Shown here piece by piece: positions 33,001-39,000 of a DNA stretch of 64,000 bases. A program made the position numbers. How positions within the stretch are numbered: position 1 is the first letter of the stretch; the number at the start of each line of letters is the position of its first letter. The stretch is from Arcobacteraceae bacterium. GTDB lineage: Bacteria > Campylobacterota > Campylobacteria > Campylobacterales > Arcobacteraceae. Location: contig JBLWVX010000003.1 of assembly GCA_048268245.1 (NCBI GenBank), positions 94,530 to 158,529 on the forward strand, read 5' to 3'.

Positions 33001-36000
33001 TCCAAGAAAATTAAATAATAATTTTAGTATCATATTTACATTAATATATTAAGGAGTGATATATGAGAATAAATGTAGAAGATACACTATTTTGTTTAGT
33101 AGATGTACAAGAAAAGCTATTTCCTCACGTAACAAATAATGAAGAGATTGAAAAAAAACTAATTACATTAATTAAAGGTTTAAAAGTTCTAGAGGTTCCT
33201 TTTATAGTAAATGAACAGTATAAAAAAGGAATAGGAGAGACAATTCCTTCTTTAAAAGAATTAGTAGTTGATTATCCACATTTTGAAAAAACAACATTTT
33301 CTTGTTGTAAAAATGAACCAACAATGGAAGCTATTAAGAATAGTGGAAAGAAGAATGTAATTGTTGCTGGAATTGAGACACATGTATGTGTATTGCAAAC
33401 TTGTATTGATTTATTAGAAGCTGGACTTCAACCAATACTTGTTACTGATTGTGTAACTTCAAGAAAGCAAAATGATACTGATGTAGCAATTCAAAGATTA
33501 GTTCACGCAGGTGTTATTCCAACTACATATGAATCAATTTTATTTGAATTAACACTAAATGCAAAAAATCCAGTATTTAAAGAAATTTCAAAATTAGTTA
33601 AATAAAACCTATTTATTAATATTAAAAGAATTAATTTGTTATGGTATAATAATTGTATTTTAAACTTATAAATTAAGGGAAAATAATGAAAAAATCCATT
33701 GTCAAACTGATTCTTTTAATGTGCTCTATCAGTTTTTTAAATGCTGATAACTCAAAATACTTCGATATTGATGAATATATACAATTCACTAGTCAAGAGA
33801 AGATTACAACTGATTTCATAAGCCAAATACAAAAAGATGCTATCAAAATAAAACAGCAAAATAAAAAAATAAAAATAGTTTTAGTATATCCTGGTAAACA
33901 GTTAACTGATTATTGGATGAAAAGTAAAGTTTCATTTGAGAAAAGACTTGATGAATTAGGTATAGATTATGAGTTGGTTCTTCATTTTACAAAGCCCCAT
34001 GTTGAAACAAGAGTTCAGTCTAAATTACTTTTAAAAGCTATAAAAGATAATACAGACTATTTAGTATTTGTATTAGATGCAAGTAAACATGCAAAGTTTA
34101 TTGAGCGAATTATAAGTAGAGAAAAACCAAAATTAATTTTACAAAATATAACTACTCCTTTAAGAAAATGGCAAAAGAGTCAACCCTTTTTATATGTAGG
34201 TTTTGATCATATGATAGGTAGTCAGATGCTTGCAGATTACTATATTAAAAAAACAAAAGGTGAGGGTAAATATGCTGTTTTATATACGGCAAATGGTTAT
34301 GTAAGTTATATGAGAGGAACAAAGTTTATTGATTATGTTTCTAAAAACTCTAATCTAAAAGTTGTCCATGAATACTTCACAAATACTAGTAAAGAAAAAG
34401 CTAGACTGGCAACTCTTGATTTATTAAAGCAAGATAATGATATTAAATTTATATATGCTTGTTCTACTGATATTGCTTTAGGTGTAATTGAAGCACTAAA
34501 GCAAAAAGATTTAGTAGGAAAAGTTTTAGTAAATGGATGGGGTGGAGGAAGTAGTGAACTTCAAGCTATTCAAGATGGTTTTATGGATGTTACAGTTATG
34601 AGAATGAATGATGATAATGGTGTAGCAATGGCTGAAGCAATAAAACTTGATTTAGAAGGTGAAAAAGAAAAAGTACCTACTATTTTTTCAGGAGAGTTTG
34701 CACTTGTAGAAAAAGGAATTGATAAAAATAAGTTAGAGCAACTTAAACAAAGAGCTTTTAGGTATACACAAGATAATGCAAAATAAAAAACTGTCACTAT
34801 CAATAATAAATAGTTTATTGCTATTACTATTTTTTATTATATTAACTACTGCTGTACTTTTTTCAAGTTATATGAATACACAAAAAGTAGTAGATAAAAA
34901 TATTAGTGACTATTTTAATCAAACATTTAATATTACTAAACTTATTATTGAAAATGAACAAAAGAGTTTACAAGAGATAGTTACAAATGTGACAAATGAG
35001 TTTAAAAGTATATCTAAATTAGATAATCAATATGAAGTTACATATAAATTAGAAACATTGTCTTATGTGGACACTGTAGATTTAGTTTTTTTTGAAATGG
35101 ATGGAGAGTTTTATGATTATAGTACTTCATTATTTGATTCGAAACTGATTATTGAAAAAATCAAACTAATGGACTCATCAATAGATAATAGAATTATTAG
35201 AGTAAAGGTTGAGAATAAAAATATCATTTTGATGATAAATAAAGATAACATTATAGATGAATTAACAGGAAGAGTTAAAGCAAAAGTTTATGGAGCTAAA
35301 GTTTTAAATGATAACTTTAGTTTACTTGAGCATATAAAAACTAGAGCTAAGCTTTTTGATATATATATTTACTTTGATAAAGAACTAATTGCTTCTACAA
35401 ATAATAAAGAGAATATTGATTTAAATGCATTTAGTAAAAAAGGAATATTTGTAGATGAAGATACAATTTATTCTAGTATACCTTATGATATATATGATAG
35501 TAAGAAGTTAGAAGTTGTATATGTGAAAAAAAATAGTACTTTTGAAATACTAAAGAATAATTTTACTCAACAAGCTTTTTTATTAGTACTTTTTGTGATT
35601 TTTTGTTTTATTCTTTTATACTATTTATCTAATAGATTTATCATTAAACCTTTTAGTCAGCTTGCAGATTATGCAAACAAGGTTAAAGACCAAAAAGATA
35701 TAGAGTATAAAAATACAAATGTTCTTGAGTTTGATAGTTTTGCCCATGAGTTAAATGATATTATTTCTGAATTAAGAGATGTAAAAGAACAATACTCAAG
35801 GGCTATTGATGGAGTTCAAGATGGTTTATGGGATGTAGATTTAAAGAATAAAAAAGTATTTTATTCTCCAAGATTTAAAACTATGTTAGGTTATGATTTA
35901 GAAGATAAGATTATATATAAAAGTTTTTGGCAGAGAAGTATTCATAAAAAAGATTATAAAAAGACATTGCTTGAACTAAAAAATCATATAAATAAAAAGT

Positions 36001-39000
36001 CAGACTTATTTGAAATGGAATATAGATTTAAATGTAAAAATAGTTCATATAAATGGATAAAAATTAGAGGAAAACTATTCTATGATTCAAATAATAAACC
36101 AAACAGATTTATTGGTTTTCACACTGATATAAATGATTTAGTTTTATTGGAAAAACAAAATCAAGAAAAAGAAAGAATGTTATATCAACAATCAAAACTA
36201 GCCTCAATGGGTGAAATGATTGGTAATATTGCTCATCAGTGGAGACAGCCTCTAACTATTATGAGTGTTATCTCTTCTTCAATGAGTATGCAATTACAAT
36301 TAGATAAATTAAATAAAAAAAAAGCACAAGAAAATTTAGAGAAGCTTTTAAAAAATATTGATTATTTATCATCTATTATAGACAAATTTAGAAACTTTTT
36401 TAATCCTAATAATAAAGTAGAAGAGTTTTATATAGATGAAGTTATTGCAGAAAATTTAGTGATATTTGAGTCTTCATACAAATCAAGTAATATACAGTTA
36501 ATACTAGACTTAAAAAATATAAAAATAGTAGGTTTTAAATTTGAACTTATGCAAGTTGTTATAAACATAATAAACAATGCAAAAGATGCTTTAGTATCTA
36601 AAATGTCTATAAGAGATTTAAATAAATTTATATTTATAAAATCATATATAACTAATAACAATTTGCTATTAGTAATCACTGATAATGCAGGTGGTATACT
36701 TAGTGAAATCTCTGAGAAAATATATGAACCATATTTTACAACAAAACATCAAAGTCAAGGTACTGGACTTGGTCTTTATATGTCAAATGAAATTATAAAA
36801 AAACACTTTAAAGGTACTTTGTCAAATAAAACTATAGAGTATGAATATGAAGGAAATAAATATAAAGGTGAAGAGTTTAAAATAGAAATACCACTTTTAT
36901 GTGAGTAGTATTTTAGTAATAAAAAAGGGGATAGATAGGAATTCTATTCCATCTATCCCCTTTTTATTTTAAAGTATTTAGATTATACGTCCATAGTTCC
37001 AGCTGGAACGTGAACATTACCTTCCATAATAATTCTAGCACTTCTACTCATAGAAGCTTTTTGAACTGTAAGTTTATCACCATCTTTAGTAATTGTAGCA
37101 CCAACTTTAATAGCACCACTTGGATGACCAAATGTTACAGTATCTCTTTCCCCTCCACCAGCAGCAAGGTTAACTAAAGTTCCTGGAATAGATCCTGCAA
37201 CACCAATAGCAACAGAAGCAGTTCCCATCATAGCATGGTGTAATTGTTGCATAGATAATGCTCTTACATGTAAATCCATCTCACTTGCCTTTACTTCTTT
37301 ACCAGAAGATGTAATAAAGTCTTGTGCAGGAGATACAAATGCAATTTTCGGAGTGTGTTGTTGAGTTAATGCATCACTTGCATCTTTCATAACACCCATT
37401 TTTAAAGCACCTGCTATTCTGATTTTTTCAAACTTTTCAAGTGCTGCTGTATCAGAGTTAATATCACCTTGAAGCTCAGTTCCTTTATATCCGATTTCAT
37501 CAGCATTTACAAATACTGTTGGAATACCAGCAGTAATCATAGTAGCTTTTAAAGTTCCAATTCCTTCAACTTCTAAATCATCTACTAAGTTTCCAGTAGG
37601 GAATAACTCTTCACTAGGATCAACTGGCTCAACGAACTCTAATACAATCTCTTCAGCAGGGAAAGCAACACCATCAATTTCGTAGTCACCCATTTCTTTA
37701 ACCATTCCATCTTCCATTGTTACATAACAAAGAATAGTTTTTTTGATATTTGCTTGCCAGATTCTTACACAACAAACACCATTTTCAGGTACATTGTCAA
37801 CTAAACCTTCTTTGATAGCAAAAGGACCAACTGCTGAACTTAAGTTACCACAGTTTCCACTCATATCAACAAAATCTTTGTCAATTGCAACTTGACAGAA
37901 GTAGTAATCTACATCATGATTAGGAACATCAGATTTACCAACTAAGATAGCTTTTGAAGTAGATGAAGAAGCTCCACCCATTCCATCCATTTGTTTTTTA
38001 TAAATATCAGGAGAACCTACAATTCTTTGTAATAGTTTGTCTCTTTTTCTTCCATCTTCTTGTGCTTCTTTTGGAAGGTCTGCAATATTAAAGAAAGTAC
38101 CTTTTGAAGTACCACCTCTCATATATGTTGCTTTTACTTTAAATTGTGGTTTGTAAGCCATAATAATATTCTCCTTTTAGTTTTAAATAAAATATTTATT
38201 AAAAAAATCTTTGATTTCTTTAACAAATATTTTAAGGGCAAAGCCCCTAAAATATTGAGAGTTATTACTTAGTTTCAGCAACAACGTCTTTAGCGAATTT
38301 TTGTAAAATACCACCATTTTTGTAAACTTCAACTTCAGCAGAAGTATCTAATCTACATAAAACATCGAATTTAACAACTTCACCATTTGCTCTTGTCATA
38401 ACAACTGTTAAGTCACATCTTGGAGTGATTTCACCTTCGATATCAAAAGTTTCAGAACCATCAATCTCGTAAGTAAATCTTGTATCACCTTCTTTGAATT
38501 GTAATGGTAATACACCCATTCCAACTAAGTTAGTTCTGTGAATTCTTTCAATTGATTCAGCAATAAGAACTTCAACACCTGCAAGTCTAACACCTTTAGC
38601 AGCCCAGTCTCTTGATGAACCTTGACCATAGTTAGTACCAGCAACGATAATTAATGGTTGTTTTCTATTGTTATATTCTTCAATAGCTTCCCACATTCTA
38701 GATTCTTTACCTTCTGGCATAATCTTAGTTAATGAACCTTGTTTAACATTTCCATTTTCATCTTTAACCATTTCGTTAAATAGTTTTGGATTTGCTAATG
38801 TAGCTCTTGATGCAGTATTGTGGTCACCTCTATGCGTTGCATAAGAGTTAAGATCAGGAATTGGTAATCCCTTAGAAATACAATACTCACCAGAAGCTGA
38901 ATCTGGTAAAATAGCATTTGATGGTGATAAGTGATCCGTAGTGATGTTATCAGGGAATACACCTAATGGTCTCATACCTTTTAATGCTGGCATTTGCATA

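Follow-up and report, generated by a model that had tools for sequence, protein, structure and literature searches.

In this study, we analysed a window of 64,000 nucleotides from the genome of an Arcobacteraceae bacterium, in which a luxP homologue lies directly in front of a gene for a luxQ-like sensor histidine kinase. As judged from their sequences, it is quite likely that the two genes form one operon encoding a LuxP/LuxQ-type AI-2 sensor made of two proteins, and the pair probably senses borated AI-2. The features of the locus are as follows:

33622..33650, strand +: promoter-like site (TTAAAA, 17 nt, TG-TATAAT) in the 80-nt gap 5' of luxP
33686..34786, strand +: luxP homologue, 366 aa, predicted periplasmic AI-2 (S-THMF-borate) binding protein, from homology to solved LuxP and the pocket pattern
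34776..36908, strand +: luxQ-like sensor histidine kinase, 710 aa, without receiver domain, from the ORF and domain matches
34803..34859, strand +: kinase membrane segment 1, residues 10-28 (hydropathy 2.66 over 19 residues)
34872..35573, strand +: kinase periplasmic LuxQ-type sensor domain (dCache-like, two-module), residues 33-266 (Pfam, AlphaFold, Foldseek)
35574..35630, strand +: kinase membrane segment 2, residues 267-285 (hydropathy 2.75)
35856..36122, strand +: kinase cytoplasmic PAS domain, residues 361-449 (PAS_3, E 1.3e-18)
36207..36398, strand +: kinase HisKA/DHp domain with phospho-accepting His487 in the H-box GNIAHQWRQPL (HisKA match 478-541, alignment A2)
36543..36896, strand +: kinase HATPase_c catalytic domain with intact N, G1 and G2 boxes (HATPase_c match 590-707, 3 residues to the protein end)

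The 3' end of luxP overlaps the 5' end of the kinase gene by 11 nt on the same strand, and both reading frames lie exactly where the survey's finding had placed them (33686-34786 and 34776-36908, strand +). Promoter-like sites were no commoner over the region than in shuffled sequence (26 found, 31.2 expected). Thus, 33622..33650 marks a plausible promoter position and is not used as evidence.

The luxP product is a Peripla_BP_4 protein (Pfam, E 1.8e-26). In the PDB, V. harveyi LuxP structures take the first four places (1zhh, 4yp9, 1jx6 and 2hj9; E 8.7e-97 to 1.2e-96; residues 25-362), followed by a ribose-binding protein (E 1.7e-15), and every motif listed by the survey was seen in the alignment. 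The protein is 48% identical to a Vibrio LuxP over 342 residues and is placed within the LuxP-family tree. It begins with a lysine-rich stretch and a hydrophobic core, and L-N-A stands ahead of D21; by eye, this N-terminus (MKKSIVKLILLMCSISFLNA, then DN) resembles a Sec signal peptide. We compared the eight positions which are taken to form the pocket of V. harveyi LuxP (Q77, S79, W82, N159, R215, T266, W289 and R310). The corresponding residues Q72, T74, W77, N154, R210, T261, W285 and R306 are identical in seven of eight cases, S79 being replaced by T74. The pattern QSWNRTWR was found in 82 of 98 LuxP-family sequences and QTWNRTWR in the window LuxP and 13 others. N159, R215 and R310 of LuxP are described as hydrogen-bond partners of AI-2 (PMC6452917), and the remaining listed residues are named as pocket residues (PMC9920117).

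Potentially, the protein could bind another small diol, borate ester or sugar instead of AI-2; the pair would then report on nutrients or boron rather than take part in quorum sensing. We consider this unlikely, although the family lies within the ribose/allose binding-protein superfamily, the pocket departs from that of Vibrio at one residue (S to T) and many of the LuxP carriers described in 2008 are given as lacking luxS (PMC2561040). The eight pocket positions, both borate-binding arginines included, are near-invariant among the 98 family members, which come from several phyla. Unlike the 2008 carriers, the window genome has luxS, located away from the pair (G000:C4:52747-53199, E 9.6e-57), in agreement with the survey. 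Furthermore, AI-2 was held in an MM32 assay by the LuxPs of Ruegeria lacuscaerulensis, Marinomonas foliarum and Denitrovibrio acetiphilus, and the Ruegeria protein is reported to bind DPD with a Kd of 0.04-0.09 uM (PMC12268683). These proteins belong to the same family as the window LuxP and come from outside Vibrionales; the tested members are all non-Arcobacteraceae. Genes for pfs-like proteins and MTHFR adjoin luxPQ in other lineages, which ties the pair to the activated methyl cycle.

In the kinase, the LuxQ-periplasm domain (PF09308) was detected at residues 79-213 (E 3.6e-9, 37 bits against a cut-off of 25.7), the match spanning profile positions 53-188 only. An AlphaFold model of the periplasmic domain (mean pLDDT 89.9) had Vibrio LuxQ periplasmic domains as its six best Foldseek PDB matches (E 1.5e-11 to 2.9e-10, TM 0.48-0.64), and ligand-binding chemoreceptor domains ranked below them. 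The whole kinase is collinear with a Vibrio LuxQ along 720 columns (21% identity, E 4e-15). Besides H487 in GNIAHQWRQPL, it possesses the boxes NIINNAKDAL, DNAGG and GTGLGL, and across the 38 sequences of alignment A2 there is no variation at H487, N601, G664 and G680. Pfam gave no Response_reg match in the protein, which stops 3 residues past HATPase_c, so that the architecture given by the survey (LuxQ-periplasm, PAS, HisKA and HATPase_c, two hydrophobic segments, no Response_reg) was recovered in full. Likewise, none of the Arcobacteraceae partner kinases examined has a receiver domain.

The locus shares with the LuxP-LuxQ systems of V. harveyi and V. cholerae (1JX6, 1ZHH, 2HJ9, 2HJE, 3C30) a Peripla_BP_4 protein with an AI-2/borate pocket, the position of luxP directly 5' of a membrane-kinase gene, a two-module periplasmic domain between two membrane segments, and collinearity of the kinase through PAS, DHp and CA. 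However, it differs from Vibrio in lacking the receiver, in a genome without LuxU/LuxO, in a sensor domain of about 16-18% identity and in its kinase core. The best family-model matches of the kinase are AtoS and FixL, and this core type is common to 53 paralogues in the genome, whereas that of Vibrio LuxQ is of the TorS/BarA type. In addition, the kinase fails the NCBIfam equivalog for Vibrio LuxQ, NF041947, with 89.8 bits against a cut-off of 1200 (positive control Vibrio hepatarius LuxQ, 1325.4 bits). Because of this low score, the AtoS/FixL matches and the low periplasmic identity, we infer the contact between LuxP and the LuxQ-like protein from gene linkage.

In Arcobacteraceae, LuxP was found in 37 of 184 species genomes and in 10 of 22 genera. 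PF09308 was above the cut-off in 30/184 genomes with the window genome counted; leaving it out reproduced the 29/183 of the survey. The domain never occurred without LuxP in the family, all 33 genomes with PF09308 being among the 37 with LuxP. The kinase gene lies directly 3' of luxP in 20/20 fetched family loci. Across phyla, a same-strand partner is located within 200 nt for 85 of 97 LuxP genes, 39 of 40 partners examined carry PF09308, and the divergence of LuxP and partner is correlated (r 0.89). This co-inheritance, together with the overlap of the two reading frames, the lack of transporter genes among those flanking the pair in the window and the confinement of LuxQ-periplasm to LuxP genomes, argues against the idea that LuxP feeds an ABC transporter or a chemoreceptor while the neighbouring kinase senses something else itself. 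Such an arrangement would have precedents, as AI-2 binding proteins of the LsrB type function in transport and chemotaxis (PMC8050422) and dCache-like domains often bind their ligand directly, in line with the chemoreceptor domains among the lower Foldseek matches. Moreover, for some LuxP genes the ORF listing shows no partner alongside (e.g., L066, L094, L108, L112 and L129). Overall, we regard this reading as very improbable.

In the supplement of a 2025 iScience paper, luxS is listed for 37 of 37 Arcobacteraceae genomes (PMC12268683). Since 147 of the 184 family genomes are without LuxP although the listed Arcobacteraceae carry luxS, the LuxPQ sensor is dispensable. Its loss from most genomes of the family, the clean empty luxPQ sites in close relatives and the relative L066, which keeps LuxP with no kinase gene following, would also fit a decaying remnant without function. 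Little credence is given to this, since both reading frames are intact with all catalytic and pocket residues kept, and the pair is conserved at 45-94% identity through many genera, most copies being without stops. Of the working boron-AI-2 sensor claimed by the survey, the intact pair with its kept pocket and kinase motifs and the presence of luxS stands, while borated AI-2 as the ligand is retained as a probable reading.

A recent horizontal import from a Vibrio, followed by loss of the receiver, might be suggested by the patchy distribution in the family and by the G+C content of the two genes (0.23-0.27), slightly lower than that of their neighbours. However, type-1 LuxPs of Arcobacteraceae group in a single clade (35 rows, SH-aLRT 97) apart from the Vibrionaceae clade (15 rows, 95), and they are only 44-48% identical to Vibrio LuxP. 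In 17 of 20 loci, representing several genera, the pair occupies the same chromosomal site, hemC-isochorismatase-luxPQ-prpF. With a kinase core of AtoS/FixL type and not that of Vibrio LuxQ, an import of this kind is hardly credible, and the survey's description of the pair as acquired, taken as a recent event, is not upheld.

LuxP/LuxQ-type pairs are common in marine bacteria. Our scan of species genomes found 519 LuxP relatives in Desulfobacterota, Alphaproteobacteria, non-Vibrio Gammaproteobacteria, Bdellovibrionota and others, nearly all of them with a LuxQ-periplasm protein as neighbour. As early as 2008, LuxP homologues were reported in Oceanospirillales, Desulfuromonas and Desulfovibrio beside sensor or regulator genes weakly similar to luxQ (PMC2561040), and of the 267 LuxP proteins in the tally of the 2025 paper, the four from Campylobacterota all belong to Arcobacteraceae (PMC12268683). 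The confinement to Vibrionales from which the survey started is therefore an outdated review statement. The survey had also found no paper on the Arcobacteraceae proteins; the 2025 supplement tabulates four such genomes under the Prokka name LuxP, all with LuxS (PMC12268683). In its passages on LuxP, that paper presents the protein as a sensor working by itself 'for transport into the cell', and no partner proteins or outputs are described. Nor is the receiver-less kinase a peculiarity of the window genome, being the commonest LuxP partner type outside Vibrionaceae (18/34 examined). As to the AI-2 input which the survey proposed for Campylobacterota at large, the pair says nothing on Campylobacter or Helicobacter; LuxP was found in 0/118 and 0/158 genomes from the two largest families sampled in this phylum.

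Outputs on LuxQ-periplasm partners comprise the receiver-less kinase, hybrid kinase, GGDEF-EAL, PP2C phosphatase and chemoreceptor. It is tempting to speculate that LuxP and the LuxQ-type periplasmic domain are a portable input module for borated AI-2, which marine bacteria from at least five phyla would have joined to at least five kinds of output, namely a plain kinase, a hybrid kinase that may or may not include Hpt, a GGDEF-EAL or GGDEF protein, a PP2C phosphatase and a chemoreceptor; we give this view an even chance. If true, LuxP-type sensing would be a general trait of seawater bacteria and not a Vibrio speciality. In Campylobacterales, the Arcobacteraceae and no fewer than two further families would then close a full 'talk and listen' loop with luxS, either via a one-step kinase or directly via a diguanylate cyclase.

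Control of a membrane kinase by a free periplasmic binding protein, acting via the periplasmic domain, is likewise described for TorT-TorS, XylFII-LytS, HptA-HptS and AioX-AioS (PMC8050422); these differ from LuxPQ in binding-protein family, sensor fold and ligand. In the same phylum, H. pylori perceives AI-2 by TlpB with AibA/AibB (PMC4488943), which also employs periplasmic AI-2 binding proteins and a membrane signalling protein. However, AibA and AibB are homologues of dipeptide- and molybdate-binding proteins, unrelated to LuxP, and the output is chemotaxis. Furthermore, dCache_1-type AI-2 receptors have been predicted in Campylobacterota (PMC12503165).

In the proposed mechanism, LuxP would be exported to the periplasm and bind the AI-2 borate diester (S-THMF-borate), supplied by the cell's own LuxS and by neighbours in boron-rich seawater. 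LuxP would dock on the kinase at its two-module periplasmic domain, and the ligand may shift the symmetry of the LuxPQ assembly, as in Vibrio, so that the PAS-DHp-CA part toggles between kinase and phosphatase; the direction of this switch, like the identity and class of the output, we infer. The survey had expected a non-Vibrio output with no response regulator beside the pair. Both points are borne out, as no response regulator gene adjoins luxPQ in any of 20 Arcobacteraceae loci and the Vibrio phosphorelay is impossible here. Sigma54_activat gave seven weak AAA+ matches in the genome (<=37 bits), none in a receiver-bearing ORF, and Hpt was found solely inside proteins of 715 and 1010 aa, with no free-standing LuxU-like protein. 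Since the kinase lacks a receiver and LuxU/LuxO are absent from the genome, His487 would have to phosphorylate, with no intermediate, a response regulator encoded by a gene of its own. The genome carries 25 unlinked response regulators and about 29 unlinked HATPase ORFs, and the target would most likely be among the former, many of which make or break c-di-GMP. The sole candidate profiled, a REC-PAS-HD_5 regulator, did not co-occur with LuxPQ. If the loop is real, it would probably affect c-di-GMP and the change between swimming and life on surfaces. Several gene arrangements are hints, by analogy, of such a c-di-GMP output in Arcobacteraceae. Elsewhere, the LuxQ-type sensor domain is fused to GGDEF-EAL, or REC-GGDEF-EAL or REC-HD_5 genes follow; another Campylobacterales family couples LuxP with a LuxQ-periplasm-PAS-GGDEF protein, and in some Arcobacteraceae GGDEF genes adjoin luxPQ.

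The two genes encode a real and complete sensor of the LuxP/LuxQ type. Their ORFs overlap by 11 nt and are preceded, on the same strand, by dnaX, a DsbA-like gene, hemC, yjdM and an isochorismatase-family gene. Among the neighbours in the window, neither a transporter gene nor a response regulator adjoins the pair. Promoter-like sites were no more frequent at the locus than in shuffled sequence, and a scan found no terminator-like site there. The methylcitrate-cycle cluster is the right-hand neighbour of the pair and is kept across genera.

Features of the locus (window positions) and of the kinase (residues)
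33686-34786, + strand: luxP homologue ORF, 366 aa
34776-36908, + strand: LuxQ-like kinase ORF, 710 aa
36983-43123, - strand: methylcitrate-cycle cluster 3' of the pair, with PrpF, AcnD-like aconitase, citrate-synthase-family and PEP-mutase/isocitrate-lyase-family genes
Kinase residues 10-28 and 267-285: membrane segments (hydropathy)
Kinase residues 79-213: LuxQ-periplasm (Pfam, 37 bits; cut-off 25.7)
Kinase, further Pfam domains: PAS_3, HisKA and HATPase_c (to residue 707 of 710)

The luxP product is a Peripla_BP_4 protein with 48% identity to a Vibrio LuxP over 342 residues. Its four best PDB-chain matches are all V. harveyi LuxP (E 8.7e-97 to 1.2e-96, residues 25-362), and the next is a ribose-binding protein (1.7e-15). 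NCBIfam holds no LuxP model and leaves a Vibrio LuxP control likewise without a name; therefore, LuxP membership is not assessable by NCBIfam. For the ligand pocket we used eight V. harveyi LuxP positions, which we take to line it. In the PDB-search alignment, Q77, S79, W82, N159, R215, T266, W289 and R310 of V. harveyi LuxP correspond to Q72, T74, W77, N154, R210, T261, W285 and R306 of the window protein. N159, R215 and R310 are described as the hydrogen-bond partners of AI-2 (PMC6452917), R215 and R310 are also named in PMC3794749, and PMC9920117 names the other residues as belonging to the pocket. After removal of rows with fewer than 300 aligned residues, the comparison of the eight positions covered 98 LuxP-family members: the window protein, those of 20 family loci, and 77 out of 80 from other genomes. 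With QSWNRTWR in 82 members and QTWNRTWR in 14, including the window protein, besides one K-variant and one E-variant, the pocket appears essentially fixed throughout the whole family. The pair most likely perceives borated AI-2. AI-2 was retained by the LuxPs of Ruegeria, Marinomonas and Denitrovibrio, with a Kd of 0.04-0.09 uM for the Ruegeria protein (PMC12268683).

The survey's finding had described the partner as a LuxQ without a receiver, and this holds: HATPase_c runs almost to the C-terminus, and no receiver domain was matched by Pfam in the 710 residues. Residues 33-266 were folded from a 29-row alignment (A3), and the predicted model has a mean pLDDT of 89.9. Its six best Foldseek PDB matches are all LuxQ periplasmic domains from V. 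harveyi or V. cholerae (E 1.5e-11 to 2.9e-10, TM 0.48-0.64), and dCache chemoreceptor domains come next. In the kinase, the H, N, G1 and G2 boxes are intact. The pair resembles Vibrio LuxPQ at its sensing end. The kinase aligns collinearly with a Vibrio LuxQ along 720 columns (21% identity, E 4e-15), but beyond this region the Vibrio protein runs on into a receiver. The NCBI equivalog model of Vibrio LuxQ gives the window kinase 89.8 bits against a cut-off of 1200, whereas a Vibrio control scores 1325; the best NCBI models are AtoS (142.9 bits) and FixL. The window kinase is no Vibrio LuxQ equivalog: each point having been tested, it has no receiver, stays below the curated score and belongs to a genome without the LuxU/LuxO relay. 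Its core (residues 456-710) has 53 paralogues in the same genome with 32-47% identity; therefore, it belongs to a kinase class expanded in this lineage. Fifty-three kinases of the genome have a common core type with the H-box AHQWRQPL.

In Vibrio, LuxP is joined to the LuxQ domain as a heterodimer when no signal is present, and AI-2 leads to an asymmetric heterotetramer that was proposed to displace the membrane helices (review PMC8050422). The genome carries luxS, as had been claimed, and a single LuxQ-periplasm gene. The proposal that the output is not the Vibrio phosphorelay was also borne out. Sigma54_activat gave only weak matches in the genome, none within a receiver ORF, and Hpt occurs only within two large proteins; with no receiver-bearing Sigma54_activat and no free Hpt, the Vibrio LuxU-LuxO route is therefore absent here. 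No regulator adjoins the pair in the 20 family loci. The one-step kinase would pass its signal to an unlinked regulator. The genome yields 78 receiver and 85 HATPase_c matches, and its signalling repertoire is very large for 2.7 Mb. By ORF calls, 75 ORFs carry a receiver, 25 of them without a kinase within two ORFs, and 29 HATPase ORFs are unlinked.

Unlinked regulators of the genome (25 ORFs)
REC-GGDEF-EAL, 1; REC-PAS-EAL, 2; REC-GGDEF, 1; REC-PAS-HD_5, 1
REC-PAS, 3; single receivers, 5
L142: receiver match only, 232 residues
L140: without Pfam match at the threshold used
OmpR-type, 6 (among them L151, a DNA-binding domain match alone at threshold); LytTR, 1
CheV-like, 2; CheB, 1

Reasoning by analogy, our best guess is that the output regulator may be a c-di-GMP enzyme. 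The REC-PAS-HD_5 protein (L148) was profiled over 184 genomes and matched in 153, through paralogues. A full-length orthologue occurs in one of the five other genomes of the genus, all five of which carry LuxPQ. L148 was rejected as the output of LuxPQ, since its distribution does not track the pair, and phylogenetic profiling, applied to this one of the 25 candidates, is too noisy for such paralogous regulators.

LuxPQ was held to be restricted to Vibrionales in 2008 (PMC2561040), and LuxP is called exclusive to Vibrio in a 2025 review (PMC12503165). That Vibrio-only statement lies behind the long debate over AI-2 as a genuine signal beyond a few groups. The survey's finding also took LuxP to be confined to Vibrionales, and this is contradicted by a scan of one genome per prokaryote species, which found 519 LuxP relatives in several phyla. 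The best 80 of the 519 include Desulfobacterota, Alphaproteobacteria, non-Vibrio Gammaproteobacteria, Bacteriovoracaceae and a Candidatus Vecturithrix, and a HMMER search of 1.8 billion representatives gave 75 clusters (50% identity) at E <=1e-30. PMC2561040 had itself listed LuxP homologues for Oceanospirillales, Desulfuromonas and Desulfovibrio, organisms that lack luxS. In PMC12268683 (2025), 267 proteins have the Prokka name LuxP (Proteobacteria 233, Desulfobacterota 11, Campylobacterota 4, Deferribacterota 2, Chrysiogenota 1, Bdellovibrionota 1). The four from Campylobacterota are those of Halarcobacter bivalviorum, H. mediterraneus, Poseidonibacter lekithochrous and a UBA4036 species, and the supplement has LuxP in 4 of 37 Arcobacteraceae rows and LuxS in all 37 (PMC12268683). 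The main text brings up Campylobacterota only for chemoreceptors, and no account of partner proteins was found in the parts consulted. Public databases name close relatives 'autoinducer 2-binding protein LuxP', and literature searches (Arcobacter with LuxP/luxQ; bivalviorum with autoinducer) found no discussion of an Arcobacter LuxPQ. Since the pair is already recorded in the family, in databases and in a published supplement, and receiver-less partners are usual outside Vibrionaceae, its kind is known and the gain lies in detail.

The locus is a clear example of how a luxS-carrying lineage outside Vibrio combines an intact LuxP-type receptor with a simpler, one-step kinase. In Campylobacterota, the cultivable marine LuxP carriers of the 2025 supplement are open to direct tests of AI-2 sensing; the AI-2 responses of Campylobacter or Helicobacter are not explained by the pair. 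LuxP was found in 5 of 401 sampled good-quality genomes of the phylum. Besides the present genome, 2 of 23 others of its family carry it, as do one of three genomes in family f6 and one of 19 in family f11. The two largest families of the same sample had none (0/118 and 0/158). The f6 genome combines LuxP with a 711-aa receiver-less kinase, and the f11 genome with a 617-aa LuxQ-periplasm-PAS-GGDEF protein, a diguanylate cyclase.

Together with related loci, the locus shows a receptor module that is widespread in marine bacteria and has many outputs. A same-strand partner of at least 550 aa follows within 200 nt in 85 of 97 LuxP genes. Pairwise identities of LuxP and of the first 300 partner residues are correlated with r 0.89 over 75 distinct pairs, a value that none of 1000 permutations reached and to which shared descent contributes. 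Forty downstream partners were run through Pfam, with most Vibrio and Arcobacteraceae loci omitted as redundant, as were contig-end loci and those without a same-strand downstream ORF; LuxQ-periplasm was matched in 39.

Outputs of the partners and locus positions
Receiver-less kinase: 21 (3 Arcobacteraceae, 18 other lineages)
Hybrid kinase: 11 (3 Vibrionaceae; 4 with Hpt)
GGDEF-EAL: 4 (Oceanospirillum, Marinobacterium, a Desulfovibrio)
SpoIIE/PP2C phosphatase: 2 (Desulfobulbaceae, Desulfococcaceae)
Chemoreceptor signalling domain: 1 (Candidatus Vecturithrix)
L065, L070, L069, L080, L088, L097, L123: non-kinase partners directly after luxP (Pfam)
L171:2642-4492 (-) and L172:83-2215 (+): LuxP partners in two other Campylobacterales families
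L082:9904-10731: Pfs-like PNP_UDP_1 phosphorylase after LuxPQ, Desulfobacterota
L072:5642-7132 and L081:10748-12235: MTHFR gene after LuxPQ, Desulfobacterota
L040:9454-10863 (also L057, L058), L036:4776-5777, L166:1687-3105: diguanylate cyclase genes flanking Arcobacteraceae pairs

Receiver-less partners are the rule outside Vibrionaceae, and the more interesting lead is the broader picture, a single input module serving many outputs. Literature searches found no description of LuxQ-periplasm fusions with outputs other than a kinase. Elsewhere, the genes 3' of receiver-less partners encode single receivers, REC-GGDEF-EAL, REC-HD_5 and REC-HATPase proteins. By ORF listing, five loci (L066, L094, L108, L112, L129) have no partner gene directly after luxP; what comes next in Motilimonas and a Psychromonadaceae MAG are small ORFs of the opposite strand. 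Activated methyl cycle genes lie just 3' of LuxPQ in some Desulfobacterota, where the MTHFR gene is preceded by an aldo-keto reductase/ferredoxin gene; a pfs gene adjoins the Marinomonas LuxP homologue (PMC2561040).

Within Arcobacteraceae, a LuxP homologue (E <=1e-40) is present in 37 of 184 species genomes including the present one (30 of 152 of good quality) and in 10 of 22 genera, with 5/5 other genomes of the own genus and 0/44 in the largest genus. The Pfam LuxQ-periplasm domain (PF09308) was matched in 33 of the 184, 30 above cut-off, and all 33 are among the 37 LuxP carriers. Stretches of 17 kb were fetched at 20 of 40 LuxP match places. In all 20 a kinase gene (649-721 aa) lies directly 3' of luxP, and 17 have the order hemC, isochorismatase, luxP, luxQ and prpF (opposite strand). 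Three loci hold a second, divergent pair at another site (351 + 649 aa, without PAS); both kinds occur together in one genome, and a different genome holds three copies of LuxP. Four LuxPQ-less relatives retain the site without the pair, and tblastn (E 1e-3) found no luxPQ remnants at these empty sites. The isochorismatase gene is 485 bp from prpF in one of them; in another, an SBP_bac_3-GGDEF gene and an NnrS gene, the two that flank luxPQ in other genomes of its genus, lie only 25 bp apart. A fifth genome has a different neighbourhood.

In a quick, unrooted maximum-likelihood tree with 98 rows, a single clade (35 rows, SH-aLRT 97) holds the main Arcobacteraceae LuxPs and is separate from a Vibrionaceae clade (15 rows, 95), and the second-kind LuxP clusters with a Bacteriovorax protein (support 85). 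Taking the site, empty-site and tree data together, we read the history as a probable old presence in the family that was lost repeatedly, with one or more further gains. A recent acquisition from Vibrio was rejected on the separate clades and the distribution in the family.

Several neighbouring genes were also observed. In Halarcobacter-type loci an SBP_bac_3-GGDEF gene ends 10 nt 5' of luxP, and a relative without luxPQ retains this gene at its site; Poseidonibacter-type loci have a GGDEF gene between luxQ and prpF. By ORF listing, prpF directly follows luxP in an Arcobacter MAG, with no partner gene between. In the genome with three LuxP copies (L106:7011-10263), a 374-aa receiver-HATPase protein is encoded on the same strand after the third LuxQ-like kinase, which hints at a kinase-to-kinase relay. 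Its nearest relative in the present genome is C1:137460-138626, with 35% identity.
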